The translations under genes and the position numbers were made by a program. 64,000 bases of DNA from a virus (Duplodnaviria > Caudoviricetes): IMG/VR virus record IMGVR_UViG_2933953506_000002, positions 51,775 to 115,774 of that record, one strand, 5' to 3'. The notes under the pieces are model-generated. The model was not told the DNA's origin and did not search any database. It saw only the letters and a list, made by a program, of their open reading frames with translations. The stretch's first letter is position 1. Each line of letters starts with the position of its first letter. Below are positions 5,359 through 25,766 of the stretch, piece by piece.

Positions 5359-5389
5359 CGCGACGCTAACCACCCGCACTGTGCATGGT
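5359..5389 (+). promoter_or_regulatory. Late-promoter-like motif CGCGAC-N19-CATGGT
   Basis: In-frame ATG at 5397 lies 7 nt downstream. Confidence 0.75.
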
Positions 5390-5396
5390 CCGCGCC

Positions 5397-8300
5397 ATGC
5401 TGAATCGCCCCACTGCACAGGCTGAGTCGCAGGACCTGAGTCGCGACCTCGAGGTCAAGGTCACGCGCCGGCCGTGGAACCCTGCCCTGCACCCCCGGGA
5501 CAGCAAGGGCCGCTTCATCGAGACCGGCGGCGTGGTGAGGACCTGGGGCGGCAAGCTCGCGCGCGTCATCCGTGCGCTCCCGCACGACCGCATCCTCGTC
5601 CAGGACCAGACCGGCCCGGACGAGTTCCGCGGCCGCAGGCACACCACCAGTGCCAAGTGGGTCAGCATGGTCGCGCGCCCCGACGGCAGCGCGCCCACCG
5701 ACGACGAAGAGAAGGTCGCCGAAGAGGACGAGCGGCGCACCCAGGACCCGCGCCGCGGCAACGGCGTTGCCCGCGACGACGACGGCGACCCCAACACCCC
5801 GAACGAGCCTCACGACCAGGACGACAAGGGCCGCCCGATCGGCGCCGATGACGGCGACGGCCCGGACGACGATGACGACCAGGACGAGCCCGAGGACGGC
5901 GCCCACCCGGTCAACGTCGATGCCCTGCCGAACCAGCAGCATGCCGCCGGGGCCCGGTACGCCGATACCGCCGCCGTCCGCCGCCACTTCATGCAGGTAG
6001 CCGCCCAGCCCGGCACGAGCACGGACATGGCCACCTTCCTGCGCTCGGTGGCACACGACGACGACCTGCGGACCACACCGTCCGGCCGACTCCTCATCCT
6101 CCTCGACGACCGGCCCGAACACGCCGGCCGCTGGAACCTCACCGCAACCGGCTCCGGACAGCGCGTCGACGCCGCCGGCACCTTTGCCACCGCCGAGGAC
6201 GCCGCCCGATTCGCCGAACACCTCGACAAGACCGCCGTCAACGGTCAGCTCACCAAGTTCCAGCAGCCGTTCGACTTCTCCGACCCACAACTGGACCGGG
6301 CCGCCCACGACTGGCGCTCCACCAAGGGCGAGAACATCCAGGGCGCCATCCAGCGGGCCCGCACGGAGTTCGACGGCACCCCGGCACCCGCGGCCGCGCC
6401 GAAGGCCACCACGGACAGCCCGACCGACGGCAACGGCCAGCGCTTCAGCACGCTCCAGGCCGTTCGCGCCCACTGGCAGCAGCGCCTCGACCAGATCAAC
6501 GAACTCGGCCCGGACAGCCTCCGAGAGCAGCGCGCCGCGCGACACCTGGAAGGCCTGATTGGCAACGACCGGATCAAGCTTGTCGGCCGCGGCCAGTTCG
6601 TCGTCGGCCAGGACCAGAACGGCGAGTGGTACCTGGTCGCCACTGGCAACGGCCTGCCGCTCCGCCGTCGGTGGACCTCCCAGCAGGAAGCGCAGGCATT
6701 CGCCCAGTCCTTCACCGAGAACGCCCCCATGGGCGACGACGGAAAGCCACTGGACCTCTCCGACCCCAACGTCCGCATCGCGACGTGGCGCTCGGACGAC
6801 AACCGGTCGATCAGCGAGGTCATCGACGCGGCCGCCGAGAGGTTCCAGCGCGACGACGCCGCGGAGGGCGGCCCGGAGGCGACCCCGGCGCCGGCCGCCG
6901 CTCCGGAGACGCCCGCCGCCCCGCAGGCACCGGAGACCCCGGAGGAGCCTCAGACGCCCGCACTGCCGGGCAACGCCGAGCCCGTCGAGGGCGTCGAGGG
7001 GTACCACTACGTCAACGACGGCGGCTCAATCACGCTGTACGGCCCGGACGGACAGGTCGCCGCGACCAGCGAGCGCGGCTACCCGCCGAAGGCCAAGATC
7101 GACGGCGTCACCGTGCCCGTGCCGCAGTACCCGAAGCAAGGCGCCGCGGTGATGGCCCGGCTGCACCGCGCCGCCCAGAACCCCGACCAGCGCGACCGGA
7201 TCACCGCGGCGTGGGTGATGAAGCCCGGCAAGGAAGGCAAGCCCGCCAAGCGGGTCATGGTCTTCCGCGGCACCATCAAGGGCGACGAGCGGGACTACAG
7301 CGCCGTCGGCTCCACGCGTGCCATCAAATGGGCCCCGTCCCTGCGGGGGTACTCGACCCAGTCGAACATGACCGAGGCCACCCGGGACGAGCGGATTACC
7401 GAGGTCCTGTCCAAGCTCGCCCGCCAGGGCCGCAACATCCACGTCACCGACGAGACCGCCGCGGGCACCCCCAACGCTCCGGCCAACGCCGTCGACGAGA
7501 CCGAGGCTCTGCGCGAGGCCATCGCCAACGCGGACGACCCCCGCCTGTCGCAGATGAAGCACGAGCGGTGGGGCATGCTCAACAGCACCCGCTCCGAGGC
7601 CAAGCGCAAGCGACTCAACTCCGAGATCGAAATGATCAACGAGGAGTTGAAGCGCCGTCGGCAGGAGCGGGACGAGGCTGCCGCCCGGGACGCCACATCG
7701 CTCAGCGACGACGACATCGCCAACCGCATCCGCGAGTCGCAGGAAGAACGCGGCACGTACGGCTCCCGCAGGGGCCAGGAAGCCAACGACGTTGAGCGGG
7801 CCATCTACAGCGAGCGCCGCCGCCGTTCGCAGGCCCTCGTCGACGATGACACCGATCTGACCACGGCCGCTGAGGACGACCTGGTAAAGGCCCGCGAGAC
7901 GATCGCCGAACGGGTCCGCATGCACCAGGCCGCCGGCGACGACCCCGAGGCCGAGCGCATCATGCGCCAGGCCCTGCAGGCGCGGCACGACGCCGTCGTC
8001 GGCGAGCAGCAGCGCCGCCATGCCCAGCAGATCGCCGACCGGCCGCCGGTCGTCGACCTCACCGACGAGGAACTGTCGCAGGAGTACAACGACTTGCTCC
8101 GGCGCGACTTCCGGAAGGCCCCGCCGGAGGCGCAGCAGGTCCTCGAGGGCCGCATGGAGGACGTCAAGCGGGAGCGCCGCGACCGGGAGAAGCGGGCTAT
8201 CACCGACCGGGACGCCCCCGAGAACCTGAGTGATGAGGACCTGAAGGCGGAGTACACCGAGCTTCGCCGAACGCGCTCCTCGTACACCGGGACCGACGAC

Positions 8301-11300
8301 GTCAAGGCGGCCCGCAAGGAACGCATGGCCGTGCTGGAGGCCGAGCAGAACCGCCGCAGCACTACGCCGGAGGTCGAGCAGCTCGTCGCGCGCGTCGACA
8401 ACCCCGACGACAACGGCATGATCAGCATCGGCGGCGGCAGCGATTACGGCTACGTCGACTACCGGGACCAGACACACGGGCACACGACCCGCGAGATCGG
8501 ATGGACCTGGGGCAAGCACAGTTGGGGGCACGCAGACACCGCCTACCCCTCCCGCGCCGCAGCTCTGGCAGCGATGGTCCAGGCGTACGACAACGACCCC
8601 GACACCCGCGGTGAGCGCACCTGGGGCCGTAAGCGCCCCGTGTTCGTGCCGAAGATGTTCGTCGAGCTCTACCAGAACGAGCGTCTTCGCGACCGGCTCG
8701 CCGATGCCAGCGAGGAGCGGAAGTACCTCTACAGCCTGTTCCGGGACCGGTACGGCTGGGACGACGGCGTGAACCCCCTGGTGCCCAGCAACAAAAAGGG
8801 CCACCACATCAAGGGCCGGAAGCTGTGGGTGCCCGAAGGCCTCCTCGCCGAGCTGAACCGGGTGACGGAGGAGCTTTCCCGGGAGATGTCCGTACGGGCC
8901 ACGGACCGGGACGCGGACAGTTCCGACCGGCAGAAGGCCAAGACCCGGCTCGCGTCCATCAACGTGGCTCTGCACGGCATTGAGGCGCTGCGCGAGTCAG
9001 TCCGCAAGAATGGCGGGGACGACGACCGGAAGGTCATCTCCCGCGAGGAGATCGAGGCACAGCAGGCCGCGCTCCGTGCAGCGCTGGGAGGCGACGATGA
9101 CGAACATGTTCAGTCCGATGGTCCGGGATCACTGGCGGACGTACCGGCCCAAGGAGTGGGCGGCGATGACCGATCCGGAGGCGTTCGTGGAGACGAAGGC
9201 CAGGGAGATCGAGACTCAGATTCTGAAGGCCGAGGAGGCGCTGGAGCAGACGGTTCCGGAGCCGACGGAGTACGAGGAGCAGGTCGGCCGGCACAAGCAG
9301 ATCAGGGCGGACGCAACGGCGATGGTCCTGGCGGATCTTCTGCCGGAGCCGGAGCCCGGGGCGGAGACGGCGCCGGAGCAGACGCCGATGGAGCAGCACC
9401 TGCAGGAGATCAGGGACCTGATGTACGACGCGTAGCGCGGTTCCGGCCGGACCCGGCCGACGCGCCCAAGGGCGCCCGCGCGCGTGCGACGGCCAATGTC
9501 GAGGCCATCCGCGTCCTCAAGAAGGTTGAGGCCGAGAACCGGCCGGCCACCGACGAGGAGCGCCGCATCCTCGCCCGCTGGTCCGGCTGGGGCTCGGTTC
9601 CGATCCTCTTCGCCAACGAGCCGAACGAGAAGGAGCCCCGCTACCAGCAGGGCGGCACCCGGTACGGCAAGTTCGCCAAGGACCACGAGCGGTGGTCCGA
9701 GTACAGCGACATTCGCAGCGAGTTGCAGCGCGTGCTCACGCCTGTGGAGTTCCGGCAGGCATCCCGCGGCGTGCTGTCCATGCACTACACGCCGCAGCCC
9801 ATCGCTGAGGCGATGTGGGAAGGCCTTCGGGCATTCGGCTTCGAGCGCGGCGACGTCCTTGAAGCCGGCTCCGGCGCGGGCACGTTCTTCGGCGTCGCTC
9901 CGGACGGCGCCCGCCTGACCGGCGTCGAACTGGACCCGACCACGGCCCGGATCGCTCAGGCGATCTACCCGCACGCCAACGTTCTCAACGAGTCTTTCGC
10001 GGAGACCGACGCCCGGCCGGGCACCTTTGACGCCGCCATCGGCAACGTGCCCTTCGCTCGGGTCCCGTTCGATGACAAGCGGTACCCGGCAGAGAGCCTT
10101 CACAACGGCTTCGTCACCAAGGAGATCGCCCTCGTCCGGCCCGGCGGTATCACCGCCGTCATCACCTCCCGCCAGACCCTCGACTCCAAGGGCGACAAGG
10201 CCCGCCGCCAGATGGCCAAGTACGGCGACCTGGTCGGCGCCGTCCGCCTGCCCTCCGGCGTCTTCACCGACGCCGGCACCGGGGTCACCACCGACGTCCT
10301 CGTGTTCCGCCGCCGCGAGGACGGCACCGAGCCGGCCGACACGTCATGGCTGGACGCCCCTGAGCGGGACATCAACGGCACCGCGCACCACATCAACGCC
10401 TACTTCGACGAGCACCCCGAGCACATCCTCGGCACGCTCACCACGCAGTCCGGCCCGTACGGGCCCGAGGTGACCGTCAAGGGCGACCCGGCCAAGGCCG
10501 CCGAGCAGCTTCGCGCCGCGCTCGACGACATCGCCACCAAGGCGAAGGCCGACGGCCGCGGCTACGAGCCGCACCCCGACGGCGACAACCGGCCTCCGGT
10601 ACAGCTCCAGGCGGCCCGGGAGAAGCACGCGAACGACTGGACCGGCCGCCTCTACGAGGGCGACGACGGCCAGTTGTACCAGCACGTGAACGGTGCCGAA
10701 CCGGTCCTGCTGGAGCCCGCCGACGGCAACACCGCCCAGCTTCGCGCCCTCATGCAGCTCCGCGACGTCGCCGCCGAACTGCGCGAGCTGGACCGGAAGA
10801 ACGACGAGGAGGAGCGCGCCGAGGCTCTGCGCGCCCAACTCCGCGACTTGCACGCCGCCTACGTCGCCGAGTACGGCCCCCTGTCCAAGCCGGGCCAGCA
10901 CCGCACCAAGGGCGGCCGCCCGACGGCGTGGGGGTACTTCCGGGCCGACCCGGACGCCGCGGCGGTCCTCGCTCTGGAACGGTGGGACGCCAACAAGGGT
11001 GAGCCTGTCCTCTCCCGCGTCTTCACTGAGCGCGCCGCGGCCCGCCGACAGCCGCTCTCCTCGACCAACGACCCGAAGGCGGCCCTGGCCGCGGTCGTCG
11101 CTGCCAAGGGCGAAGTGGACCTCGGCGAGATCGCCCGGCTCCTCGACGTCACCCCGCAGGAGGCGGTGAAGCGCCTCGGCAACGAGGTCTTCACCGACCC
11201 GGAGACCGGCCGCCTCGAACTGGCCAGCGCCTACCTGTCCGGCGCCGTCCGCGACAAGCTCGACGCCGCCCGCAAGGCCGCCGAGCGCGACCCGGCGTAC

Positions 11301-14300
11301 GCGGTCAACGTCGCCGCGCTGGAGGCCGTGCAGCCGCCGGACCGCACCATCGGCCAGTTCACGCCTGAGATGGGCGCCCACTGGACGCCCCCAGAGCTTC
11401 TGCAGGGCTTCCTGCGCGAGTACCTGGGCGACCGCACACTCCGCGTCGCTCATGACGACCGGTACGGCTGGATTCTCAACACCGGCCGCGTGCCCGAGGC
11501 CAACAACGTCATGTACGGCGTCCCGGCCGTCGAGCCCGACCCGGAAAAGGGCATCAAGGGCAACAAGGGCAAGAACGCCGTGGAGATCGCCCGCGCGATC
11601 CTCGGCTTCGGCTCGCTGACCGTCTACGAGGACGACAAGCGCAAGGAAGTCGACGAGGCGACCTCACGTCTGATCCGGCAGAAGGCCGATCAGATGCGGG
11701 CCGAGTTCGCCAAGTACGCCACGGCGAACGCCGAGCGGCTGAGCGTCCTCACCGACTCGTACAACCGCATCATGAACGGGCACATCGTCCGTTCGTACGA
11801 GGGCATGTCGCCCACCCTCGAGGGCTTCACCCCCGACCGGAACCCGCACGCCTGGCAGCGCTCCGGCGCGGCCCGGATGCAGTTCGAGCGGGGCGTGATC
11901 CTCGCCCATGAGGTGGGCCTCGGTAAGACGTCCACGCTCGTCATGGGTACCCAGGCCCTCAAGGCGTCCGGGCAGATCGAAAAGCCCATGGCCGTGGTGC
12001 CGAACCACCTCGCGCGCCAGTGGTACAACGAGGCCCGGTTCCTGTACCCGAACGCCGACATCCACCTGATCACCTCGGCGGACCTGGCCGGCGACCGGCG
12101 CGGCAGCACGCTGGAGTGGCTGCGCGCCAACAGGCCGGACCTGGTCATCTTCACTGAAGAGGCGTTCGGCTCGATCAAGATGAGCCCGGAGGCTCAGGAC
12201 GAGTACGAGTTCCGGGAGCTGGAGGCGCTGCGCGAGCAGCTTGACCGCCAGTACGAGGACGCCGACAACCCGAACCACCCGTTCATCGTCGCGAAGATCG
12301 AGCAGCGCATCGCGACGGTCAGCAAGAACATCAACAAGAACGCCGCCCCGATGCGGCGACCGGGTGAGACGTACTGGGACGACCTCGGGTTCGACTACTT
12401 CGTCGTCGACGAGGCCCACAGGTACAAGGGCGTCGGCTTCCGCTCCAAGGAGGGTGGCGGCGACCCGGCGTCTATCCGCGGCGTCGACCTGCACCAGAAG
12501 ACGAGCGACCTGCACCGCCGCCGCCAGGGCCGAGCCACGATCACGCTCGCCACCGGTACGCCGCTGTCGAACAGCATCAGCGAGCAGTTCACCATGCTGA
12601 TGTTCGCGGCGCCGTGGGTGCTGGACGCCTACAAGGCGGGCGCCCCCGACCTGTGGGCCAACACCTTCGGCCGCAAGACCCTGCGCATCGAGAACGCCCC
12701 CGACGGCTCCGGCCTGCGCGTCGTGGAGCGGTTCTCCGAGTTCCACAACAAGCGCGCCATGAAGACCATGTGGGGCCTGGTCGCGGACACCAAGCGCGGT
12801 GACGACGTCGGCATTCCCCGTCCGAAGCTCAAGGGCGGCAAGCCGAACCTGATCATGGTCGACGCGACGCCCGACCAGAAGAAGCGTCTCAAGGGGCTCG
12901 TCGCCCGCGGCCGCGCGATCCACAACGGTGAGGTCGACCGCCACCAGGACAACATGCTCGCGGTGTCCAACGAGGGCACCAGCGTGGCCCTCGACCCGCG
13001 GCTCATCGACGCCAAGGCCCCGGCCGGCAACAAGCTCAAGGCCGTCGCAGACCGGCACATCGAGCGCTACCACCAGAACAAGGACCGGCTCTATCCGGTC
13101 GCCCTCGACAGCCTCGTCAACCACCCGGTACCGGGTGCCCTCCAGATGATCTTCCTGAACGAAGGCGTCCCGGGAGGCAAGAACAAGGGCAACTTCGACG
13201 CCTACGCCGAACTCAAGCGGCTCATGGTCGCGGGCGGCATCCCCGCGGACAAGATCGCCTTCGTTCAGGACGCCAAGAAGTCCGGCAAGCCCGAGGACAT
13301 GACGGAGCTGTTCCGGAAGGCCCGCGAAGGTGAAATCGCGGTCCTCATCGGCTCCAGTGCCGTCGCGGGTACGGGCATGAACGCCCAGGACCGCATGATC
13401 TCCCTCTCGCACGTCGACCTCGACTGGGGCGCCGCGCAGATGGAGCAGCGCAACGGCCGCATCCTGCGCTACGGCAATCTGAACCCCGAGGTCGAGATCG
13501 ACATCTACGCGACCAAGGGCTCCATGGACGGCTGGAAGGCCGGATTCGTCGCAGCCAAGGCCGAGGGCCTGGTCGACATCCAGCGGCCGGAGCCGGAAGA
13601 CGGCGACTCCAGCGACGTCGTCCAGGAGATCGACGGCGCCGAGTTCGACTACGAGACGATGGAAGCCGAGATCGGCGGCAACCCCTACATGAGCCAGCTC
13701 ATGAAGGCGAAGCGCCGTCTCAAGGACCTGGAGATCGACCAGCACAACGAGGCCGCCGAGCGTATCCGTCGCGCCGAAGCCCTCGATGCGCTGCGCCAGG
13801 AAGCCCAGGCCACCCGCGACGGTATCCAGCGCCGCGAGCAGGCCCTGCCCAGCATCCAGGAGGCCGACGACCGGTTCCGCATGACCATCGACGGCTCCCC
13901 GTACGGCGAGCGCTCCGACGCCGGCAAGGCCCTGCACCGGCAGATCACCTCCCGCCTCTTGGAGCACAACCGTGAGGGCCTGAGCGACTGGCACATCCTT
14001 GGCCAGTTCCGCGGCCTGGACTTCGGTGTCCGCACCGAGAAGACAGCGGACGGCAAGCTCGTCGCGCACGTCGGCTTCCCCGACCTGCGGCACTCCGACT
14101 TCGAGCGGACCGTGGAGGACCTGCAGAAGAAGGGCGCCGGGTCGGGCATGATCACCCGCCTCGGCAATGCCCTCGACAAGGCGCCCGCGTTGCAGGAGTC
14201 GGACCGGGCCAAGGTGCCGGAGCTGGACGAGCAGATAGCCCTGCTCCAGTCCGCGCACGCGGCCGCTGACCTCACTCCGCAGATCGACCACGCCCGCAAG

Positions 14301-17300
14301 CGGTCGAACCTGCTCGAGGAGATCGTCGCCCGCGTCACCAACCTGGACGCGAAGCCGGAGATCGACCCCGACGAACTCGACAAGGAGCGGTACAAGAACA
14401 AGGACGACCGCGAGAAGATCGCCAAGGGGCGGCGCGAGGAACGCGAGCCGCTGCAGGCCGCCGTCGACGAGGCCGTCGCGAACCTGCACCGCTGGGACGA
14501 GGAGAACCCGGCACCGGAGCAGGACGACACGGTTCGCCTCTCTGAGGACGAGGTGCGCGAAGCTCTTGCCCGTCTCCGCCCGGAGCCCAGCACTACCCCG
14601 CAGCCGGACGCCCCGGAGACCAGCGACCGCAGTTCCGCGGACGCCGACACCGACGTCGACGAGCCGAACACCGACGAGACGGCGACGCCTGACACCACCG
14701 GCGCAGGCAGCAGCGACGAGCCGCTGACCGACACGCCAGCCGCGGGCGACACCGGGGCCCAGAACAACGGCCAAGACCAGGACGACGTCGTTCGCCTCTC
14801 CGAGGACGAGGTGAACAACACCCTCGCCAGCATCCAGCCGGACGCCGACACGACCGCCACCGACGAGCCGGACGAGCCCCTTCGGTACGCGTGGGACAAG
14901 CCCGAGGACTTCGTCACCCTGACCATGCCGGCCGCACTCGTCAACTTCCTGAACGTCGACGAGACCGCCGCCATGGAGGACCCCGACACCCGGAAGGCTC
15001 TCAAGGAAGCCAAGCCGGGGCGCCGTGGCACGCTCCAGGTGACCGGCCCGATCGACGTACACCGCGCCCTCCTCCAGTGGGCATGGACGCTCGAGGGTGG
15101 AGAGGGGCTGGAGTCCGACCCCAGCGATGTCCGGGCCTACAAGGCGTACGCCAAGCGCATCGAGGAGGCCGACGCCGACCTGCAGCGCCGTCGCGCCGAG
15201 CGGGAGACCGCGGCCGCCGCTGACTCCGACGAGAACGACGACGCCCCGGAGACCGACGGAACGAACGACGGCGGCAGCGACGAGCCGCCGGCCGACGCGC
15301 CGAGCACGGCTGAGCCGGGCGACGAGAACGACGACCAGGACCAGCGCACAGCGGAGGACAGCGACACCGTCACCCTGACCCCGGACGAGGTGTCCGACCA
15401 GCTCGACTCTGTACGCCCCGAGGGGTCCAAGGCCCCGTCCTCGATGGACGATGGCGAGATCCGCGACGAGATCGTCGACCTGATGGGCCGGGAGATGGCT
15501 GATGAGCTGTCCGGCGCGGACCGTACCCGCCTGCAGGTCCTGGAAGCGGAGGAGGCCCGCCGTGCCGGCCGGGCCCCGAAGCAGGAGCCCAAGCCGAAGC
15601 GGACGACCGAGGAGCCCGGAGGACTCTTCGACGTCGACCAGCCCACCACCCAGCAGCCGAGCAGCGCCGCCGACGTCGACAACCCCGAGGACCAGCCCGA
15701 CGACCTCTTCGGCACGCCGGACATGATCGCCGACGCCGAGGGCCGCAGCACCGAGGGCCTGCGCCCGGCGCGCATGCGCAACGCCGCCGACCTGACCCAG
15801 GGCGACCGGTACACCGACGCAGACGGCCGCACGCACACCGTGTCCGAGCCGCCGGTCAAGACGCCTCGCGGCCGGACCCGACTCGTCACCGACGACGGCG
15901 AGGAGCGCTTCTACAACGCCGATGCCCAGGTGCGCCTGCGCTACCCGGACGAGGAGATCCCCGACAACGAGACCGACGAGCGGTCCGCCGACGACGATGC
16001 CGACAACGCCCCGGCCGTCGACGAACCGGAGACCTCCGAGCCGGACGTCGACGAGCCCGCCGCCGACGAGCCGGAAACTACCGCGGACAGCGACCGCAGC
16101 AGCACCAAGGACCGCGTCGACCGCATGTCAGGCCTCATCGACCAGGCCACCGACGGGGCGGGCGGTGACGAGCTGCCCGAGGTCAGCGAGATCCGGGACG
16201 CCTTGGGCCGGGCCGAGGACTCCGCCGACCCGGACGCCGAGCTGCGTTCCGCCGCCGACCGGCTCGACGACCTTGCGGAGATGTACGAGCTGGGAGGCCC
16301 GGACGGAGAGCACGCCGCAGACCTGTTCCGGCAGGCCGCCCGTATCGCGAGGGGCGAGGACGATGACGACCGCCGCGGCGACGACAACGACCGCAGCGAG
16401 GACGACAACGACGCCCCCGCCGCGACGAACCAGGACTCCGAGGAGGACCAGGACGACGACGCGGGACGCTTGCAGCGGGACGGAGACGGCAACGCCGCCG
16501 ACCCGAACGGCACCCCCGACGGAGGCGGCGCCGGTGCGCCCGACGCACCCGCCGACGACGAAGGCGACAGCGACAGCCCCGACGATGCCCCGGACAACGC
16601 TGACGACGAGCAGAACGAGCCGGACGCGGAGGACGAAGACGAGCAGGACGACGACCAGGAGCGCCGTCGCCGGCGTCGGCGCCGCCGCAACGGCGGAGGC
16701 GGTAACGGTGGCCCCGGCGGGCCTGGCGGCCCCGGACTGCCGCGCCTGAACCTCCCCGACCTCAAGACCCCGAACGCCAGCGGCGACGGCGGTGAAGGAG
16801 ACAGCGAGGACGGCGCTGCCGCCCGCGGCCGCCGCCCGGCCGCACGGCACCGCGACGTGGCGTCCCTGCGGCGCGCTTGGAAGAACGGCGACGGGCTCAC
16901 CGCCGCCGAGGACACCCCGGAGCGTCGCGCAGCCCTGGCCCAGGCAGCCGACCGGGACGGCCTGACGCTGTCCCCGGGCAGCGGCCTGGTCACATGGCCC
17001 GAACCGCAGGAAGACGGCACCACCCTGTGGCACTTCGCGCAGGCCCGGAACGGCAACAACCTGCCCGGCTTGTCCCTGGCCACGGACAACCCCGAGGAGG
17101 CCCGCGCCCTGGCTGGCCGCTTCGAGCAGATCACCGGCAGCGACGGTCAGCCCTTCGACTGGCACCGGCCGTGGGGCCCGAGCACCGTCACCCAGTGGCG
17201 CGACGGAGAAGGCCGCAACCTGCAGCGCGCCCTCCACGCCGTCCGCGACGACTTCGAGCAGCAGCGTGCCGCCTCCGCCCAGCCGGAGCCCACGACGGAG

Positions 17301-20300
17301 CCGGAACGGAGGGCACTGCCGGACGACCTCACCGGCCTGGACGACGACGAGCTGGTCGACGCGTGGAGCAACGACCTCAGCGACGAGGACCAGCAGCGCC
17401 TTATGGCGGAGATGGACCGCCGCGACGGCTACACCGACCAGCGCGTTCGTGACGTGCTGCCGGACACCCCGCCGGCCGACGCCGAAGAGGCCGAGCGCCG
17501 TGCGAAGGCCGTCGACGAGGCCCTCGGCTTCGGGGGCGTCGACGTCCCGCGCGTGCGCCGCACCCGTGAGGACATCATCCGTGCGGAGTTCGCCGACTTC
17601 GACGAGGCCCGCTACCAGGCCGCCATCGACGCCACGAACGGCTACTTCTACGCCCGGAAGTACAAGTACGGCAGCGGCATCAACGAACGAGAGCTGTTCT
17701 CCGGCGGTGAACTCGCCAAGTTCGGCCGCTGGGAGGAGTACGCCAGCGAGGAACTGAAGGACTGGTACAAGGCCAACGGCGGCCGCATCACGTACAACCA
17801 GTTCCGGCAGACCTACCGGGACAACGATCGCCGGGACCGGCAGCAGTTCGAGGAGGAGCAGCGCCGCCAGGCGGAAGTCGGGCAGACCGAGGAGCCCACG
17901 ACCCCGGAGACCGAGCCGTACGACCCGGCCACGCCGCGCTTCGCGGACGAGGCGGCCCTTCGGGATCACATCCGCAGCGGGCAGCTCGACGAGGTGCCCG
18001 AGGACCAGCGTGGGGACATTCCCTCAGCCGAGGAACGCGCGGAGATCGCCGATGCCGAGAGCACCCAGCTCTCCGACGGCGGCCGACTGCTCATCTACGG
18101 CAACGAGGCCGGTCGCGCTGGCAGCCGCCGCGGACAGCGGTTCGACGTGGCCCTTCCAGGCAGCATGCAGCCCCTGTTCCGCAACGGCTTCCACAGCGCC
18201 GAGGAGGCCCGCAAGTACGCCAGCGTCCTCGACGGCATCAAGGACACGGACGGCAACGCGTTCCCGTGGGACGCCCCCAACGTCGCCGAGCGCGCCCGCG
18301 CGTTCCGCACCGCCGACGGCAACCGCCTGTTCGACGAGATCACGGAACGCCTGTACGGCTTCAACGAGCTCTACGAGCAGTGGAACAGCGACCGCGGCCA
18401 GGCATTGCACCACCGGACGTGGAGCCAGCAGGAAGCCGACTGGAACACCCGCGAGGAGGAGGCCGGCTACTCGATCCCCGTCGACCTGACGGACATCCGC
18501 CCCGGCGACGAGATCAGCTTCCCCCTGGCCACGAGCCGCGGGCAGAACACGCGGCCGCAGGACGAGTACGTGGGAACCGTGCACGCCACGGTGACCGGCG
18601 AGGGAGAGCCCTTCCAGTACCGCTCGCAGTTCTCCGCCTTCGGGAACCAGCAGCTCTACCGGTTCCCGGCCGAAGGCTCTTGGACCAACCAGTACGGAGA
18701 GCACAGCGAGATCGATGAGGCGTTCCCGAACCTGGGAGTCGTCCGTCGCCGCCCGCGGCCCGACGAGGTGTCCAGCACGGGCGACGGCCGCGACGACCGT
18801 TCGTCCCGCGCGGACACCCCGCAGGCGGAGACGCCGGGCACCGCGACGCCCCCCTCGCGCCGGCAGCCCGCCCCGGACCGCGCTCCTGCGGAGCCGGAGC
18901 CCGCCGTGCCCTCGGCGCCGGCCGACGAGCCGCAGGGTGAACCCGAGCCCGTGGGCGGTCAGCCCGCACACTGGGCGCGTGTCCGCGACCTGGTGCCGGG
19001 CGACATGGTCCGTATGGAGGGCCGCACGAGGAACGGCCGCGCCATCACGCGGTCTGGTTACGTCTTCACCGGGCCCGTCGACGTGGAGGTCACTCGCAAC
19101 GGCCGCACGGAGCGGATGCTGCGCACGTACGTCACGGAGAACCCGGACGGCACCGGTAAGAGCGGCAACGTCTTCACGCCGCTGAACGCCACCGCGGCGC
19201 GGGCCGAGGCGCCCGACGACGTGGTGCCCGGGTCTCCGGCCAGCGGCGCTCAGAGCACCGTTCAGGCGGGCAGCCTCCCCGACGTGGTCCCCACGGACCG
19301 GAACGGCCGGGGCTTGTTCCCGGGTAGCACCGTCACCGGTGTTGACGGGCTGCGTACCCGTGAGGGCACCGTCACGGGCGCCACCAACACCACGGTGTCG
19401 GTGCGCTGGGACAACGACGACACCGCCGACGGCCTCTCGCCGAACACCCTCACCGTAACCGGTGGCGACCGCCCCGACGGCTGGACCTCGTCCGGGCAGC
19501 GCGTGACCCCGCGGCACATCGTAACCGACACCGAGGGCGCTCTCCTCGGGCCAGTCGACGAGGTCAACGGCGACCGCGTCACCATCACCACCGCCGAAGG
19601 CACCATCACGCGGAGCGCCGGAGACCTCCGCGTCGCCGGCGAAGTGCGCGACGACGCCCCGGGCACCGACCCCGTCACCGGCATCGACGACCCGGCGGCC
19701 GCGGACCTCAAGGAGGACGACGTCGTGGTCCTGGACCTCGACGGCACGCCGACCACCGTGGCGGTCACCGGTATCAACCGCGAAGGCGACCGCGTCACCA
19801 TCGACTTCGCCGACACCACCACGGGCGAGATCGGCCAGATCGACGTGGACGCCTCCCAGGTCATCCCCCGGGCCCAGGGCGCCGACGGCACCCCGCCCGA
19901 CCTCGGGCCGGACGACGCCCCAGACACCCCGGACGACCTAACCGTGCACGAGCCGCCGCACCGCGTCGAACCCGTCACCGGCCCGACCGTCGACCCCGAC
20001 CTCACGACGGGCGACCGAGACGTCATCGGTGACCTCGCCGACGGCCCGGACGACGACCCCGACGCCCAGCAGGCCGCCGTACGCATCACGGCCGACCTGC
20101 CCGTCACCCCGGAGCAGGCCGCCGCACTCGCCGCGCAACTCCGCGATTCCGCCGACCCCTCGACCCCGGAGGGCCGCGCCGCCCTGCGTGCCGCCAACCA
20201 CCTTGACCGGGCCATCGGCCGGACCCCTCCGCCCGAGCTCAACCGGCCGCGGCCGTCGAACGCCGCACAGGTCGCGGAAGACGACACGATCGCCATCCCC

Positions 20301-22445
20301 GACAACCAGGGCAACGGCGTACGCGTCTACCGCGTCCGGGGTGTCGAAGACGGCCCCGGCGGTACGCGCAGCCTCTTCCTGGAAGGCGAGGACGGCCGTA
20401 CACGCCGCCGCGTCGTCCACGGAGCGATGCCGCTGTGGCAGCTCGGTGAGCCCCAGTCGGACGGCGAGAGCGGACCGGACGACACCGCCCTCGTGCCGGG
20501 CGCCCCGGCTGCGCCGACCCCGAGCCTGCCGCCGGCCGGTGCTCCGCGGGACCCCAACCCGTCTCCGCAGTCCGACGCCGACCGCATCGTCGCCGACCAC
20601 CCCCGCGCCGTAGCTGCGCGGATCATCGACGCGGCGATTGCGGGCACCGAACCGCCCGGTGACATCCACGCGCTTCGTGAGCAGATCGCCCAGCGCCTCA
20701 CCGCCGAGGCCCTGCGCGATGCACGTCAGGCCGCTCGCCAGGACGCCGTGGCCGCGTTGGATGCCGCGGGCATCACCGGCCGCGACCGGTCCGCAGCGCT
20801 GCAAGCCCTCAAGAGGGCGCGGCAGAAGGCGCACACCGCGACGGTGCGCGCCGCCCTGCGCACCATCAACGACCTGGAGCCGCTGCCCGACGAGAGCGAC
20901 GAGGACCTCGCCGCGCGAGCCCGCGACCTCCTCAGCCTCATTCCCGACCAGATGGGAGGCACCCCCAACGGGCTCGACGACGACGGCGATGCAGACGTCG
21001 CCCGCACCGTCGCTGGGCACGTCGACGACGCCGTGAACGCGATCATGCAGCAGCTCCAGGCCGCGGGCATGGACCCGGGCGACGCCGACCGCATCGCCCG
21101 CCTCCTCACTCAGCAGATGAACGGCTCCCGACAGGCCACCGCCCGGCAGATCGCCCGTCGAGTTACGGCCGTGTCCCCGCAGGCTGGCCGCCAGCCGGGT
21201 CTGCTCGCCCGGATCGTGGCCGCGCTCGTCCGTCTCGCCAAGCGCTTCGCGGAACTTGTGCGGGCCGGAGCCCGGAAGATCGCAGGGAAGTACCGCAGTG
21301 CCCGCGAGCGGCTGCGTCGTCTGCGCGCCTTCCTCGGCCGCCTCGCCCGTCGCGTGCGGGAGTGGCCGGAGTCCCGGCGCCTGGCTCGCCTGCACCGCGC
21401 CCTCGACCTGCCCGGAGCCGACGGCGAGTCCCTGGCCGCCCGGATCTCCCACTGGGCCGGCCTGATGCCGGAGGCCGGACGCTTCGGTCAGGCTCAGCGC
21501 CGTGTCACGTGGTGGAGGCCCACGACGTGGGCGCAGCTTGCCGCCGGACGACTCCCTGGCCGAAGCGACCGCACCCAGTGGGCCCCGGACCAGGCCGCGG
21601 ACGCTGGCCCCGGCCTGACCGCGCTCCGCCACCTGGCAGCGCTGAGGGCGGCCGGCGGCGACGTCGACCAAGACGTGACCCGCCGTCTGGCCGACACTCT
21701 CGGCGACGACTTCGGCGGCGACCCTCACGGCACGCTGCAGCGCGCGGACGACTACGTGGCGCTCACCGAACGCCGCCTGGTCAACCTCCAGGCCGCGCGG
21801 ACGGGCGGCACCCTGCCGGATGACCCCGACCTCGAGGTCGAGATCACTGCGGCTCGGGCCGAAGCCGCGGCCGCGCGCCGAGAGTGGGCGGACCTGCGGG
21901 CTCAGTACGCCGCGGCGGTCCCGGACGCGGTCGCGGCGACCCTCGCCGAGATCCGCGACATGGGACCTGCGGGGAACGCCGGCATCGTGTTCGGCCCGGA
22001 CTCCACGCCGGACGCCGAGCGGGCCGTACGGGGCGTGCAGCGCATCGTGCCTCAGGCGTGGCTCAACACCCCGGCCACGCGCCGACTGACGGCCGTTGAC
22101 GGCGACGAGGGCCGCTACGAGCCCGACGGACAGCGAATCACCGTCGCCGACCTCGCCGACGACGGGCTGGGCACCGCCGGGCACGCCCTAGCGCAGCACC
22201 TTGCCCAACACCTGGGAGACCTGGACGCCGCCCAGCGCGCGTTCTGGTTCAACCAGACCCACACCGGCCGACCGGGCGCCCGCCGCATGCGGCGCAGCAC
22301 CCTCAGCCGCATCCTGCGTCGCCAGCAGACGCAACCGGACACCGGTGACACCCTCGCCCGGTCCGTTCAGTCGATGTTCAATGGCGACTGGTACCTGGAT
22401 GACGACCTGCGGGCGTTCCTCCTGGGCCTGCTCGCCACCCGATGA
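5397..22445 (+). CDS. Giant DarB-like polyvalent protein (~5,682 aa): N6-adenine methyltransferase + SNF2/SF2 helicase + repeated domains
   Basis: HYTP, LEAGSGAG (motif I) and GNVPF (motif IV) at ~9780-10055; AHEVGLGKT, VDEAH, ATGTP and QRNGRILR at ~11900-13470; located in the head module. Confidence 0.9.
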   Translation: MLNRPTAQAESQDLSRDLEVKVTRRPWNPALHPRDSKGRFIETGGVVRTWGGKLARVIRALPHDRILVQDQTGPDEFRGRRHTTSAKWVSMVARPDGSAPTDDEEKVAEEDERRTQDPRRGNGVARDDDGDPNTPNEPHDQDDKGRPIGADDGDGPDDDDDQDEPEDGAHPVNVDALPNQQHAAGARYADTAAVRRHFMQVAAQPGTSTDMATFLRSVAHDDDLRTTPSGRLLILLDDRPEHAGRWNLTATGSGQRVDAAGTFATAEDAARFAEHLDKTAVNGQLTKFQQPFDFSDPQLDRAAHDWRSTKGENIQGAIQRARTEFDGTPAPAAAPKATTDSPTDGNGQRFSTLQAVRAHWQQRLDQINELGPDSLREQRAARHLEGLIGNDRIKLVGRGQFVVGQDQNGEWYLVATGNGLPLRRRWTSQQEAQAFAQSFTENAPMGDDGKPLDLSDPNVRIATWRSDDNRSISEVIDAAAERFQRDDAAEGGPEATPAPAAAPETPAAPQAPETPEEPQTPALPGNAEPVEGVEGYHYVNDGGSITLYGPDGQVAATSERGYPPKAKIDGVTVPVPQYPKQGAAVMARLHRAAQNPDQRDRITAAWVMKPGKEGKPAKRVMVFRGTIKGDERDYSAVGSTRAIKWAPSLRGYSTQSNMTEATRDERITEVLSKLARQGRNIHVTDETAAGTPNAPANAVDETEALREAIANADDPRLSQMKHERWGMLNSTRSEAKRKRLNSEIEMINEELKRRRQERDEAAARDATSLSDDDIANRIRESQEERGTYGSRRGQEANDVERAIYSERRRRSQALVDDDTDLTTAAEDDLVKARETIAERVRMHQAAGDDPEAERIMRQALQARHDAVVGEQQRRHAQQIADRPPVVDLTDEELSQEYNDLLRRDFRKAPPEAQQVLEGRMEDVKRERRDREKRAITDRDAPENLSDEDLKAEYTELRRTRSSYTGTDDVKAARKERMAVLEAEQNRRSTTPEVEQLVARVDNPDDNGMISIGGGSDYGYVDYRDQTHGHTTREIGWTWGKHSWGHADTAYPSRAAALAAMVQAYDNDPDTRGERTWGRKRPVFVPKMFVELYQNERLRDRLADASEERKYLYSLFRDRYGWDDGVNPLVPSNKKGHHIKGRKLWVPEGLLAELNRVTEELSREMSVRATDRDADSSDRQKAKTRLASINVALHGIEALRESVRKNGGDDDRKVISREEIEAQQAALRAALGGDDDEHVQSDGPGSLADVPAQGVGGDDRSGGVRGDEGQGDRDSDSEGRGGAGADGSGADGVRGAGRPAQADQGGRNGDGPGGSSAGAGARGGDGAGADADGAAPAGDQGPDVRRVARFRPDPADAPKGARARATANVEAIRVLKKVEAENRPATDEERRILARWSGWGSVPILFANEPNEKEPRYQQGGTRYGKFAKDHERWSEYSDIRSELQRVLTPVEFRQASRGVLSMHYTPQPIAEAMWEGLRAFGFERGDVLEAGSGAGTFFGVAPDGARLTGVELDPTTARIAQAIYPHANVLNESFAETDARPGTFDAAIGNVPFARVPFDDKRYPAESLHNGFVTKEIALVRPGGITAVITSRQTLDSKGDKARRQMAKYGDLVGAVRLPSGVFTDAGTGVTTDVLVFRRREDGTEPADTSWLDAPERDINGTAHHINAYFDEHPEHILGTLTTQSGPYGPEVTVKGDPAKAAEQLRAALDDIATKAKADGRGYEPHPDGDNRPPVQLQAAREKHANDWTGRLYEGDDGQLYQHVNGAEPVLLEPADGNTAQLRALMQLRDVAAELRELDRKNDEEERAEALRAQLRDLHAAYVAEYGPLSKPGQHRTKGGRPTAWGYFRADPDAAAVLALERWDANKGEPVLSRVFTERAAARRQPLSSTNDPKAALAAVVAAKGEVDLGEIARLLDVTPQEAVKRLGNEVFTDPETGRLELASAYLSGAVRDKLDAARKAAERDPAYAVNVAALEAVQPPDRTIGQFTPEMGAHWTPPELLQGFLREYLGDRTLRVAHDDRYGWILNTGRVPEANNVMYGVPAVEPDPEKGIKGNKGKNAVEIARAILGFGSLTVYEDDKRKEVDEATSRLIRQKADQMRAEFAKYATANAERLSVLTDSYNRIMNGHIVRSYEGMSPTLEGFTPDRNPHAWQRSGAARMQFERGVILAHEVGLGKTSTLVMGTQALKASGQIEKPMAVVPNHLARQWYNEARFLYPNADIHLITSADLAGDRRGSTLEWLRANRPDLVIFTEEAFGSIKMSPEAQDEYEFRELEALREQLDRQYEDADNPNHPFIVAKIEQRIATVSKNINKNAAPMRRPGETYWDDLGFDYFVVDEAHRYKGVGFRSKEGGGDPASIRGVDLHQKTSDLHRRRQGRATITLATGTPLSNSISEQFTMLMFAAPWVLDAYKAGAPDLWANTFGRKTLRIENAPDGSGLRVVERFSEFHNKRAMKTMWGLVADTKRGDDVGIPRPKLKGGKPNLIMVDATPDQKKRLKGLVARGRAIHNGEVDRHQDNMLAVSNEGTSVALDPRLIDAKAPAGNKLKAVADRHIERYHQNKDRLYPVALDSLVNHPVPGALQMIFLNEGVPGGKNKGNFDAYAELKRLMVAGGIPADKIAFVQDAKKSGKPEDMTELFRKAREGEIAVLIGSSAVAGTGMNAQDRMISLSHVDLDWGAAQMEQRNGRILRYGNLNPEVEIDIYATKGSMDGWKAGFVAAKAEGLVDIQRPEPEDGDSSDVVQEIDGAEFDYETMEAEIGGNPYMSQLMKAKRRLKDLEIDQHNEAAERIRRAEALDALRQEAQATRDGIQRREQALPSIQEADDRFRMTIDGSPYGERSDAGKALHRQITSRLLEHNREGLSDWHILGQFRGLDFGVRTEKTADGKLVAHVGFPDLRHSDFERTVEDLQKKGAGSGMITRLGNALDKAPALQESDRAKVPELDEQIALLQSAHAAADLTPQIDHARKRSNLLEEIVARVTNLDAKPEIDPDELDKERYKNKDDREKIAKGRREEREPLQAAVDEAVANLHRWDEENPAPEQDDTVRLSEDEVREALARLRPEPSTTPQPDAPETSDRSSADADTDVDEPNTDETATPDTTGAGSSDEPLTDTPAAGDTGAQNNGQDQDDVVRLSEDEVNNTLASIQPDADTTATDEPDEPLRYAWDKPEDFVTLTMPAALVNFLNVDETAAMEDPDTRKALKEAKPGRRGTLQVTGPIDVHRALLQWAWTLEGGEGLESDPSDVRAYKAYAKRIEEADADLQRRRAERETAAAADSDENDDAPETDGTNDGGSDEPPADAPSTAEPGDENDDQDQRTAEDSDTVTLTPDEVSDQLDSVRPEGSKAPSSMDDGEIRDEIVDLMGREMADELSGADRTRLQVLEAEEARRAGRAPKQEPKPKRTTEEPGGLFDVDQPTTQQPSSAADVDNPEDQPDDLFGTPDMIADAEGRSTEGLRPARMRNAADLTQGDRYTDADGRTHTVSEPPVKTPRGRTRLVTDDGEERFYNADAQVRLRYPDEEIPDNETDERSADDDADNAPAVDEPETSEPDVDEPAADEPETTADSDRSSTKDRVDRMSGLIDQATDGAGGDELPEVSEIRDALGRAEDSADPDAELRSAADRLDDLAEMYELGGPDGEHAADLFRQAARIARGEDDDDRRGDDNDRSEDDNDAPAATNQDSEEDQDDDAGRLQRDGDGNAADPNGTPDGGGAGAPDAPADDEGDSDSPDDAPDNADDEQNEPDAEDEDEQDDDQERRRRRRRRRNGGGGNGGPGGPGGPGLPRLNLPDLKTPNASGDGGEGDSEDGAAARGRRPAARHRDVASLRRAWKNGDGLTAAEDTPERRAALAQAADRDGLTLSPGSGLVTWPEPQEDGTTLWHFAQARNGNNLPGLSLATDNPEEARALAGRFEQITGSDGQPFDWHRPWGPSTVTQWRDGEGRNLQRALHAVRDDFEQQRAASAQPEPTTEPERRALPDDLTGLDDDELVDAWSNDLSDEDQQRLMAEMDRRDGYTDQRVRDVLPDTPPADAEEAERRAKAVDEALGFGGVDVPRVRRTREDIIRAEFADFDEARYQAAIDATNGYFYARKYKYGSGINERELFSGGELAKFGRWEEYASEELKDWYKANGGRITYNQFRQTYRDNDRRDRQQFEEEQRRQAEVGQTEEPTTPETEPYDPATPRFADEAALRDHIRSGQLDEVPEDQRGDIPSAEERAEIADAESTQLSDGGRLLIYGNEAGRAGSRRGQRFDVALPGSMQPLFRNGFHSAEEARKYASVLDGIKDTDGNAFPWDAPNVAERARAFRTADGNRLFDEITERLYGFNELYEQWNSDRGQALHHRTWSQQEADWNTREEEAGYSIPVDLTDIRPGDEISFPLATSRGQNTRPQDEYVGTVHATVTGEGEPFQYRSQFSAFGNQQLYRFPAEGSWTNQYGEHSEIDEAFPNLGVVRRRPRPDEVSSTGDGRDDRSSRADTPQAETPGTATPPSRRQPAPDRAPAEPEPAVPSAPADEPQGEPEPVGGQPAHWARVRDLVPGDMVRMEGRTRNGRAITRSGYVFTGPVDVEVTRNGRTERMLRTYVTENPDGTGKSGNVFTPLNATAARAEAPDDVVPGSPASGAQSTVQAGSLPDVVPTDRNGRGLFPGSTVTGVDGLRTREGTVTGATNTTVSVRWDNDDTADGLSPNTLTVTGGDRPDGWTSSGQRVTPRHIVTDTEGALLGPVDEVNGDRVTITTAEGTITRSAGDLRVAGEVRDDAPGTDPVTGIDDPAAADLKEDDVVVLDLDGTPTTVAVTGINREGDRVTIDFADTTTGEIGQIDVDASQVIPRAQGADGTPPDLGPDDAPDTPDDLTVHEPPHRVEPVTGPTVDPDLTTGDRDVIGDLADGPDDDPDAQQAAVRITADLPVTPEQAAALAAQLRDSADPSTPEGRAALRAANHLDRAIGRTPPPELNRPRPSNAAQVAEDDTIAIPDNQGNGVRVYRVRGVEDGPGGTRSLFLEGEDGRTRRRVVHGAMPLWQLGEPQSDGESGPDDTALVPGAPAAPTPSLPPAGAPRDPNPSPQSDADRIVADHPRAVAARIIDAAIAGTEPPGDIHALREQIAQRLTAEALRDARQAARQDAVAALDAAGITGRDRSAALQALKRARQKAHTATVRAALRTINDLEPLPDESDEDLAARARDLLSLIPDQMGGTPNGLDDDGDADVARTVAGHVDDAVNAIMQQLQAAGMDPGDADRIARLLTQQMNGSRQATARQIARRVTAVSPQAGRQPGLLARIVAALVRLAKRFAELVRAGARKIAGKYRSARERLRRLRAFLGRLARRVREWPESRRLARLHRALDLPGADGESLAARISHWAGLMPEAGRFGQAQRRVTWWRPTTWAQLAAGRLPGRSDRTQWAPDQAADAGPGLTALRHLAALRAAGGDVDQDVTRRLADTLGDDFGGDPHGTLQRADDYVALTERRLVNLQAARTGGTLPDDPDLEVEITAARAEAAAARREWADLRAQYAAAVPDAVAATLAEIRDMGPAGNAGIVFGPDSTPDAERAVRGVQRIVPQAWLNTPATRRLTAVDGDEGRYEPDGQRITVADLADDGLGTAGHALAQHLAQHLGDLDAAQRAFWFNQTHTGRPGARRMRRSTLSRILRRQQTQPDTGDTLARSVQSMFNGDWYLDDDLRAFLLGLLATR
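9097..9435 (+). CDS. TnpV-like protein (112 aa) nested in the +1 frame of the giant gene
   Basis: GGGAGG RBS at 9086-9091; protein-like sequence MTNMFSPMVRDHWRTYRPKEW...; the giant-gene frame here is G/D/A/R low-complexity. Confidence 0.8.
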   Translation: MTNMFSPMVRDHWRTYRPKEWAAMTDPEAFVETKAREIETQILKAEEALEQTVPEPTEYEEQVGRHKQIRADATAMVLADLLPEPEPGAETAPEQTPMEQHLQEIRDLMYDA

Positions 22446-23427: not shown

Positions 23428-23637
23428 GTGCAGTTGAACCGCAGCACCGCCCTCGCGCTCCAGCAGGAGGGCAAGGCCGCCTTCGAGGCGGGCGACCCCG
23501 CTGACTCCAGCCCGTACAACAGGTTCGGCAACGCGGAGCAGCAGTTCGGCTATCAGTTCTGGACCCGCGGCTACATCACGGCGCGTTCGACGGCCGAGGG
23601 CGCCCAGGAACCTGCAGGAGCCAGCGCAGGACGTTAG
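23428..23637 (+). CDS. Small hypothetical protein
   Basis: AAGGGAG RBS; 69 aa with SPY...W..GY pattern. Confidence 0.7.
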   Translation: MQLNRSTALALQQEGKAAFEAGDPADSSPYNRFGNAEQQFGYQFWTRGYITARSTAEGAQEPAGASAGR

Positions 23638-23696
23638 CCAGACGCGAACGACACGGTGCCCGGCGGCCCACTGTCCACCGCCGGAGGTTCCCCGCC

Positions 23697-25734: not shown

Positions 25735-25766
25735 GCGACGTTAACCCCTCTCTCCCTCTTCACTCC
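25734..25766 (+). promoter_or_regulatory. Late-promoter-like motif (CGCGACGTTAAC) upstream of the capsid gene; -10 element atypical
   Basis: Exact match to the upstream 12-mer of the 57552 copy. Confidence 0.6.

Follow-up and report, generated by a model that had tools for sequence, protein, structure and literature searches.

A small, remotely TnpV-like gene nested out of frame within a giant methyltransferase-helicase gene of an actinobacterial phage element

Organization of the giant gene and its embedded gene

Examination of a 64,000-nucleotide stretch of DNA from a tailed virus (Duplodnaviria; Caudoviricetes; positions 51,775 to 115,774 of IMG/VR record IMGVR_UViG_2933953506_000002), referred to here as the window, reveals a small gene lying entirely within a giant open reading frame (ORF) on the same strand, in a different frame and with its own start and stop codons. 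The window has a GC content of 69%. The giant ORF codes for a protein with methyltransferase and helicase domains of the type found in DarB of phage P1, and the small gene is positioned at the boundary between its N-terminal region and these domains. We consider it likely that this TnpV-like gene, in the +1 frame of the giant gene, and the giant frame itself are both read across the shared DNA, with the giant frame contributing a linker. The principal features are as follows.

5385..22445, + strand: giant ORF coding for 5686 amino acids without an internal stop (ORF list and translation)
5385..9086, + strand: N-terminal part of the giant protein, about 1234 amino acids, opening with an HPRDSKGRFIE-type motif (translation; weak Pfam match to DUF6158)
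9086..9091, + strand: GGGAGG, a Shine-Dalgarno-like site 5 nt before the embedded ATG
9097..9435, + strand: embedded gene for the 112-residue, TnpV-like helical protein P0001 plus TAG (ATG 9097-9099, TAG 9433-9435), in the +1 frame relative to the giant ORF
9087..9434, + strand: the same DNA in the giant frame, residues 1235-1350, a Gly/Asp/Ala/Arg-rich linker (translation)
9435..9850, + strand: helical domain ahead of the methyltransferase (FRPDP ... ARWSGWGS), from alignments, helices predicted by AlphaFold2 with a predicted local distance difference test score (pLDDT) of 80-90, and the description of LPD36 in PMC5512222
9855..10218, + strand: methyltransferase core (Pfam Methyltransf_25 and Eco57I, both under the curated cut-off)
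11880..13475, + strand: SNF2/ResIII helicase core and Helicase_C (Pfam)

An earlier note on this DNA, made from the letters alone, had proposed a complete out-of-frame gene here, and the GGGAGG at 9086-9091, the ATG at 9097, the TAG at 9433-9435 and the quoted 112-residue translation are all confirmed. It had also regarded the composition of the giant frame over this interval as the signature of an off-frame reading, and the G+C content at third codon positions (GC3), plotted for each frame, switches exactly at 9080-9439. The giant ORF has a mean GC3 of 0.90; its frame runs at 0.86-1.00 on either side and falls to 0.34-0.55 within 9080-9439, where the nested frame takes the values of 0.86-1.00. 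When the whole 17-kb giant ORF is scanned in 120-nt windows, the giant-frame GC3 drops below 0.72 only at 9015-9494, and this is the sole frame switch along its length.

The signals that bound the embedded gene are well conserved. In all 27 sequences of a set formed by the window and 26 close relatives the small gene starts with ATG or GTG, and ahead of this start lies a purine-rich site, namely GGGAGG, GGGAGGA or GAAGGGG, with the weaker GAGAGG in locus L013 and GAAGGA in L022. Among more distant copies from metagenomes (63 distinct start contexts after identical ones were merged, 61 with ATG and two with GTG), a GGAG, GAGG or AGGA core lies ahead of 34 of the 63 starts, as against 95 of 800 control positions (12%). 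The stop codon, TAG in 26 of the 27 close sequences and TAA in the other, is at a fixed site, 2-32 nt from the FRP motif that opens the methyltransferase part just 3′ of it, and the 27 small-protein sequences share 37 invariant columns.

Conservation of both frames in close relatives

The 26 relatives comprise five viral contigs and 21 contigs from Streptomyces genomes on which the small gene is present at 54-98% identity. There are several features that bear on whether the outer frame is maintained. First, the giant frame is unbroken across the small gene in 24 of the 26 relatives, together with no less than 3.4 kb of sequence 5′ and 6 kb of sequence 3′ of it (for the shorter loci L012 and L014 openness of the flanks was judged to the ends of the locus). 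The two exceptions are L013, a remnant with the equivalent of giant residues 1189-1428 alone, and L020, which has lost one base in a run of C residues right after the small-gene stop and is otherwise intact. L013 (5481-6401) is a Streptomyces contig that keeps about 720 nt of the giant gene around an intact small gene, whose product (P0008) is annotated by the NCBI pipeline PGAP as a hypothetical protein. Second, the spacer between the small-gene stop and the FRP motif differs in length by 0, +3 or +27 nt, all of which preserve the giant frame. Third, the only canonical giant-frame start codon inside the overlap is GTG 9156, which is present in 15 of the 27 sequences; the remaining 12 offer no separate start for the methyltransferase part ahead of its conserved domain.

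Fourth, the codons of the embedded gene avoid stops in the giant frame. An embedded codon ending in T would create such a stop when followed by a codon beginning with AA, AG or GA, and none of the 167 T-ending embedded codons in the 27 sequences is so followed, compared with 802 of 3369 in the flanks, read in their own frame. When alignment columns are counted instead, the result is 0 of 13 for those that are always dangerous in this respect and 17 of 55 for those that never are. Finally, in every one of 11 pairs the synonymous divergence of the small gene is below that of either flank, at roughly half their values (for example 0.12 against 0.60 and 0.47), and third positions vary in 69 of 111 small-gene codons as opposed to 258 of 289 and 339 of 398 codons in the two flanks. 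Such a reduction in synonymous divergence and third-position variation is what a further constraint on these bases would be expected to produce. (L013 and L020 were excluded from the flank alignments used for synonymous divergence; L013, L014 and L020 were excluded from alignment A4, and L013 and L020 from A7.) These sequence comparisons indicate that both the outer and the inner frame are maintained by selection.

Distribution in genomes, plasmids and metagenomes

A profile built from the 27 small-protein sequences was compared with 1.84 billion representatives and at E<=1e-3 matches 422 clusters, whose members are mostly 90-200 amino acids long and match from residue 1. Among 401 sampled Actinomycetes genomes the TnpV-like profile matches 15 and a methyltransferase query matches 17, and in all 15 genomes with the TnpV-like match it is co-located with a methyltransferase match. 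The sixteenth methyltransferase genome (G390) has a longer and divergent embedded gene, and the seventeenth match is a fragment. Of 14 such loci that were retrieved, 13 have a downstream ORF in the -1 frame that is open over the entire small gene; the fourteenth (L043) contains several frameshifts. Three loci, L055 and L056 (genomes G102 and G048) and L091 (G390), contain at about 2700-3400 a longer embedded gene of some 200-250 amino acids, weakly related to the TnpV-like family and in the same position inside related methyltransferase-helicase ORFs, with an LF-type motif on both sides of it.

In the short forms of the large protein, of about 1800 amino acids, the large ORF opens with an ATG some 70 nt upstream of the small gene. 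The leader so encoded is conserved as M..RRR..GQLSFxxLW (M-A/P-RR..QIDGQLSLESLW); the large frame then crosses the small gene as Gly/Arg/Ala/Asp/Pro-rich sequence and resumes after the stop with (A/R)FRP..QDDLAPSGA(K/R)ARVRANL. The leader and the part containing LPD36, methyltransferase and SNF2 domains share a frame and are connected solely through the -1 frame of the small gene, and in L048 and L050 there is no further start codon in the large frame before the conserved domain. The nesting is also found in eight of eight further plasmid loci (L058-L065), from Pimelobacter, Nocardioides, Arthrobacter (63% GC, with a small gene of 180 codons), Ruania and four further Streptomyces plasmids.

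Metagenomes extend this pattern. When six of 80 loci with an incomplete small gene are left out, the -1 frame is open in 70 of the 74 complete copies and the +1 frame in none of them, and 45 of the 52 loci with at least 600 nt of downstream sequence continue in the -1 frame. The leader motif precedes the small gene in 57 of 65 distinct upstream peptides (identical ones having been merged), and inspection by eye, without a count, suggests that the sequences typically resume with FRP..LAPSGARARV.ANL right after the small gene. One metagenome ORF (L168, 2563-6181) encodes at least three methyltransferase domains in tandem; its leader leads directly into the first of these without a small gene, and the small gene is located between the first and the second. 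The constant unit is therefore the embedded small gene plus the LPD36-methyltransferase region, and the upstream partner varies. Three types of partner are seen: a conserved leader of 20-30 amino acids, a phage region of 1200 amino acids, or another methyltransferase. In the window, in the distant relative L051 and in the giant coding sequences (CDSs) of Streptomyces plasmids it is a polyvalent region of at least 1200 amino acids. Judged from these sequences, the module formed by the embedded TnpV-like gene and the LPD36-methyltransferase region is ancient and widespread in Actinomycetes mobile elements.

Relatives of lower GC content were sought from the proteins P0141, P0120 and P0075, and no locus was found. 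A tblastn search of a phage collection with P0001 gave no match, and a search of the same collection with the DNA from 8000 to 11000 gave only 150-nt methylase stretches in four records from two phages (Sinorhizobium PBC5 and Pseudomonas Itty13).

Predicted structures and family relationships

The two readings of the shared DNA have very different predicted structures. From the 27-sequence alignment AlphaFold2 models the small protein as five helices with a mean pLDDT of 86.5. For the giant frame (8946-9884, 25 sequences), residues 48-163 of the modeled segment, which correspond exactly to 9087-9434, are without secondary structure and have pLDDT values below 50 (31-39); the segments on either side of it form helices, for which pLDDT is 80-90 toward the methyltransferase. 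This contrast suggests that the outer protein uses the DNA as a disordered tether and that the inner frame codes for the folded protein.

The earlier note had described the small protein as TnpV-like, a claim that holds for its relatives at a distance and not for the protein itself. P0001 has no match to TnpV at E<=1 and so falls short of the 27-bit gathering cut-off of PF14198, and direct membership of the TnpV family was rejected when searches of Pfam, NCBIfam and PHROG gave no match. The link is a transitive one, from the small-protein profile to its relatives and from these to sub-threshold TnpV matches. Of 80 relatives recovered by the profile search, 22 match PF14198 at E<=0.01 (best E 1.7e-5), below the threshold; ten scanned singly include none at the 27-bit cut-off, the best reaching 22.1 bits, with P0022, P0029, P0046 and P0123 scoring 17-22 bits. 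In the ESM Atlas the closest clusters bear the name TnpV protein (scores 0.92, 0.91 and 0.87), and one of them has PF14198 on 19% of its members. TnpV proteins of PF14198, a name that derives from Tn4451, resemble the small protein in size and in being helical, and the papers found on TnpV do not give a function. We therefore describe the small protein as a putative remote relative of TnpV and not as a member of the family.

The small protein also has free-standing relatives, and in two natural sequences (P0130 and L122) a TnpV-like protein is fused in frame to an LPD36-methyltransferase. None of 8000 candidates of 581-2000 amino acids scored as a longer fused form, which is weak evidence either way. 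A profile of the 80 relatives compared with PDB sequences gave only a row at chance level.

Considerations weighing against dual coding

Several observations count against the reading of this locus as two selected and translated genes. First, an open -1 frame is common in this genome: in its real genes it is open in 492 of 1186 windows of 112 codons (41.5%), so the openness of a frame in a single sequence proves nothing, and synonymous shuffles of the small gene leave the -1 frame open in 6.5-100% of trials (probability of an open frame 0.065-1.0), varying with the sequence. The argument for dual coding must thus rest on many sequences that are related and not independent. Across relatives, however, openness goes beyond the 0.415 baseline: with clustering at 70% identity the frame is open in 43 of 47 (binomial P 8e-13), and at 60% identity in 22 of 26 (P 8e-6); at 50% identity only nine clusters are left, of which eight are open (P 5e-3). 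Second, the median dN/dS (nonsynonymous to synonymous divergence) of the nested frame is 0.69 over 348 pairs, the giant frame having a value of 0.91, and variable nested columns are distributed almost evenly over the three codon positions (53/57/69); the small protein is therefore loosely constrained within the lineage. Third, amino acid identity is approximately equal in the two frames. Fourth, four of the metagenome copies are not nested. Fifth, the small-protein fold has no match in the PDB at E<=0.001, and P0001 belongs to no Pfam, NCBIfam or PHROG family. Finally, both products are predicted from the DNA, and a function for the small protein can be suggested by association only. Three public sequencing runs matched, with 0.07, 0.06 and 0.45 of the sampled words; one of them is recorded as RNA, and the share in RNA is 0.06-0.07.

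Alternative explanations

The alternative that fares best concerns the origin of the arrangement and is compatible with dual coding. The small gene may be, or may once have been, a mobile cassette that enters just 5′ of the LPD36-methyltransferase region with the host frame kept open, similar to the HNH ORF of the actinophage ShiLan. We regard such an origin as unlikely, although it has attractive features: in L168 the first methyltransferase has no small gene and the second has one, the LF-type motif flanks the embedded gene on both sides in L055, L056 and L091, the upstream partners of the module vary, and ShiLan provides a precedent (PMC11855218, in the text available). However, the small protein bears no nuclease or recombinase signature in searches of Pfam, NCBIfam and PHROG or in a PDB fold search, no pair of otherwise near-identical genes with and without the insert was found, and co-location in 15 of 17 genomes fits vertical co-inheritance. 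A homing endonuclease of the ShiLan type was rejected as the identity of the small protein, there being no nuclease family in Pfam, NCBIfam or PHROGs and no match of the all-helical model in the PDB at E<=0.001.

A second alternative is that only the nested frame is translated over 9097-9435, and that the methyltransferase-helicase is made either through a late -1 frameshift, giving a fusion of the TnpV-like protein and the methyltransferase, or by re-initiation at the small-gene stop, the upstream part ending in some other way. The natural in-frame fusions (P0130 and L122) are consistent with recoding, as is the fact that the methyltransferase is invariably read in the -1 frame with respect to the small gene. 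Nonetheless, it seems improbable. An X XXY YYZ heptamer is in register at neither junction, and none is present within 8990-9130; the lone CCCGGGG, at 9355, is not in register, and in the alignment the more distant half of the family has other codons at this place. There is no Rfam match at E<=1 in 8700-9800 and no start codon near the small-gene stop. Moreover, recoding needs the -1 frame to be open only at the 3′ end of the gene, and it is actually open throughout; upstream it continues as well, through the conserved leader (in 57 of 65 distinct loci) or, as here, through 1234 high-GC3 codons. A programmed frameshift site was thus rejected for want of an in-register heptamer or an Rfam element, and a group I or group II intron or other RNA element over the interval was rejected because Rfam gave no match.

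It is also conceivable that the small gene is a fossil, the relic of a TnpV-like gene that the large ORF engulfed long ago, with its translation lost and its frame open only by drift. The high dN/dS of the nested frame (median 0.69) and the weakened ribosome-binding site GAGAGG in the remnant L013 point in that direction. Against this, the nested frame has a GC3 of 0.86-1.00, a fixed stop, 37 invariant columns and a confidently predicted fold; each of the 27 close sequences and each of the 63 distinct metagenome copies retains its start codon, with the Shine-Dalgarno core enriched (34 of 63 against 12%), and the ORF is intact down to 54% identity and across Actinomycetes orders. With start, stop, composition and fold all conserved, a dead relic is very improbable.

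Last, the notion that tandem genes were fused in this genome by an assembly or sequencing error or a recent mutation, which might draw on the 1-nt difference in the C-run at the L020 junction and on the separate genes listed by PGAP in four non-Streptomyces plasmids, and which corresponds to the broken giant ORF with ordinary tandem genes envisaged in the earlier note, can be set aside almost completely because the unbroken arrangement is shared by 24 of 26 relatives from independent assemblies and far beyond these, and in three of the four plasmids the annotated helicase start lies within or past the FRP..LAPSG block that begins right after the small-gene stop.

The giant protein and its genomic context

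Its predicted domain content marks the giant protein as a polyvalent protein of phages. The N-terminal region is followed by the linker, by LPD36-like helices and by an adenine methyltransferase; an SNF2/ResIII helicase comes next, ahead of a long C-terminal part. ResIII scores 27.5 bits in the giant protein, over its 22.5 cut-off, and SNF2-rel, DEAD, Methyltransf_25, Eco57I and Helicase_C (22.1 bits) are just under their Pfam cut-offs and in the order expected. Within the translation of 9438-12500, Methyltransf_25 corresponds to residues 140-210 and Eco57I to residues 184-260 (Pfam), and an NVPF motif is seen in the giant-protein translation. An adenine methyltransferase is thus followed by an SNF2-type helicase in a single polypeptide. 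The GWGS motif and the predicted helices before the methyltransferase match the LPD36/GxGU description in the available text of PMC5512222, a comparison made with the description only.

Two further parts of the giant protein have distinctive sequences. The motif (A/D)LHPRD.KGRFIE, which we take to be one found in phage head-associated proteins, opens both the giant protein (5385-5560) and that of L051 (about 3100-3200). At about 15900-16300 (giant residues about 3500-3640) there is a segment of extreme low complexity, with a run of nine arginines followed by Gly/Asn/Pro repeats, in which GC3 is normal, unlike in the overlap.

The neighboring genes are those of a phage head.

2587..5046, + strand: single ORF for a portal protein that carries a Mu F-like domain at its C terminus (Phage_portal, E 5.2e-42; Phage_Mu_F, E 4.8e-5, under its cut-off)
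23505..25625, + strand: prohead protease and NUDIX domain fused in one ORF (Pfam Peptidase_S78 and NUDIX), downstream of the giant gene
25745..27139, + strand: major capsid protein (Pfam Phage_capsid), downstream of the giant gene

The portal-MuF ORF is directly upstream of the giant gene, which is thus flanked by head genes, and the plasmid relatives adjoin genes of type IV secretion systems. The window is part of the head module of a Streptomyces prophage or phage-plasmid. Since it is coded beside portal, MuF and capsid genes, the giant protein is probably packaged and injected. The fusion of Peptidase_S78 with NUDIX (23505-25625) is an unusual pairing for a head module. A homologous giant gene, coding for 5846 amino acids, is present in L057 (CP108533.1, 14555-32890), a 130-kb Streptomyces ‘plasmid’; its occurrence on one record with dnaE and a phage portal gene suggests that this record is a phage-plasmid.

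Proposed mechanism and comparison with known systems

The earlier note had suggested true dual coding in which the giant protein uses the small gene as its linker, and comparison with relatives supports this through the open frame, the spacer length differences, the approximately halved synonymous divergence, the lack of a conserved alternative start and the predicted disorder. We propose that ribosomes initiating at 5385 would read the embedded DNA in its -1 frame, because the large frame has no stop before the gene and no start after it, and that the product would include a disordered linker of 116 Gly/Asp/Arg/Ala-rich residues tying the N-terminal region to the methyltransferase. Ribosomes initiating at 9097 would make the 112-residue small protein, and we infer that the cell produces the two proteins alike. 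The earlier note had suggested that the small protein may regulate or chaperone the methyltransferase-helicase. A partnership of the two is probable, since they are almost never apart and two in-frame fusions are known; the small protein could be an obligate subunit, loader or regulator, in the manner of the small Dar proteins that accompany DarB in phage P1. Embedding would then guarantee the joint inheritance and transcription of the two genes.

The giant protein resembles the DarB-type dyad, of which phage P1 DarB is the archetype, in having putative LPD36-like helices with a motif that fits GxGU (ARWSGWGS), an adenine methyltransferase and an SNF2/ResIII helicase in a single polypeptide; it differs in the second gene embedded just before LPD36. 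According to the available text of Iyer et al. 2017 (PMC5512222), DarB-like polyvalent dyads are packaged and then injected along with the DNA, where they counter restriction, and the main text of that paper contains no occurrence of TnpV, of overlapping genes or of frameshifts. P1 DarB depends on the small accessory proteins Ulx and DdrB, according to the portion available of PMC12810830. Ulx was rejected as a homologue of the small protein (hhalign probability 0.6%), and P1 ulx is a separate gene downstream of darB, whereas here the small gene is embedded.

There are two informative precedents for the nesting itself. The lambda Rz1 gene lies entirely inside Rz, on the same strand, in the +1 frame and with its own start. 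Rz and Rz1 are the two subunits of the spanin, as described in the available texts of PMC5295617 and PMC6139136. The similarity is that of a small gene within a larger one whose products form one complex, as in the model proposed here. However, both lambda frames are functional, and here the outer frame seems to be a disordered spacer in the overlap; the outer gene is also 10 to 40 times longer, and the hosts are high-GC actinobacterial phages and plasmids. In ShiLan an out-of-frame HNH ORF with its own start and stop is present inside the stop-free methylase frame of an actinophage, and its in-frame reading is proposed to loop out (PMC11855218, in the text available). Both cases have an out-of-frame ORF within a phage methylase gene whose outer frame is free of stops, but the ShiLan ORF, as portrayed there, is a sporadic nuclease homing element within the methylase, and here a non-nuclease helical protein is encoded, near-universally and at a domain boundary.

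Annotation and significance

Current annotation fails at these loci in two ways. In Streptomyces giant CDSs the small gene is dropped: five Streptomyces plasmid records list the giant CDS only, as the earlier note had anticipated of standard annotation. In plasmids of Pimelobacter, Nocardioides and Arthrobacter the helicase start is too late: the ‘SNF2-related protein’ or ‘helicase’ is annotated as starting at 7633 in L059 (NZ_CP097986), 7447 in L063 (NC_008697) and 7714 in L064 (NZ_MH067967), 78-175 nt past the small-gene stop. These starts look mis-called because they cut into the conserved FRP..LAPSGAKAR block, and a late start of this kind trims the conserved domain ahead of the methyltransferase.

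The arrangement was not found described in the literature on TnpV, on overlapping or out-of-frame genes of Streptomyces or phages, or on dual coding of SNF2 or methyltransferase genes, nor in the available text of the GeneTack paper. Embedded genes as such are already known from Rz/Rz1 and ShiLan, and the present arrangement is a variant of them. To our knowledge, few same-strand, fully embedded genes outside small viruses show conservation across long evolutionary distances, and in high-GC bacteria embedded genes are usually dismissed as shadow ORFs. Here an embedded gene of 330-630 nt is kept together with its read-through frame in phages, plasmids and integrated elements of several Actinomycetes orders, which makes it a clean system in which to test dual coding.

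As a broader and distinctly tentative suggestion, the DarB-like methyltransferase-helicases of Actinomycetota might generally carry an obligate small partner gene in their own frame, with the overlap itself functional, an ancient and selected dual-coding module as opposed to a by-product of high GC content. If this were true, ribosomes elongating in the large frame and those initiating at the internal start would compete on the mRNA and thereby set the ratio of partner to enzyme, and the large protein would be reusing the DNA of its partner as a disordered tether. The embedding and the natural fusions in any case provide a first handle on TnpV-like proteins, tying them to injected methyltransferase-helicases that are thought to shield incoming DNA from restriction.

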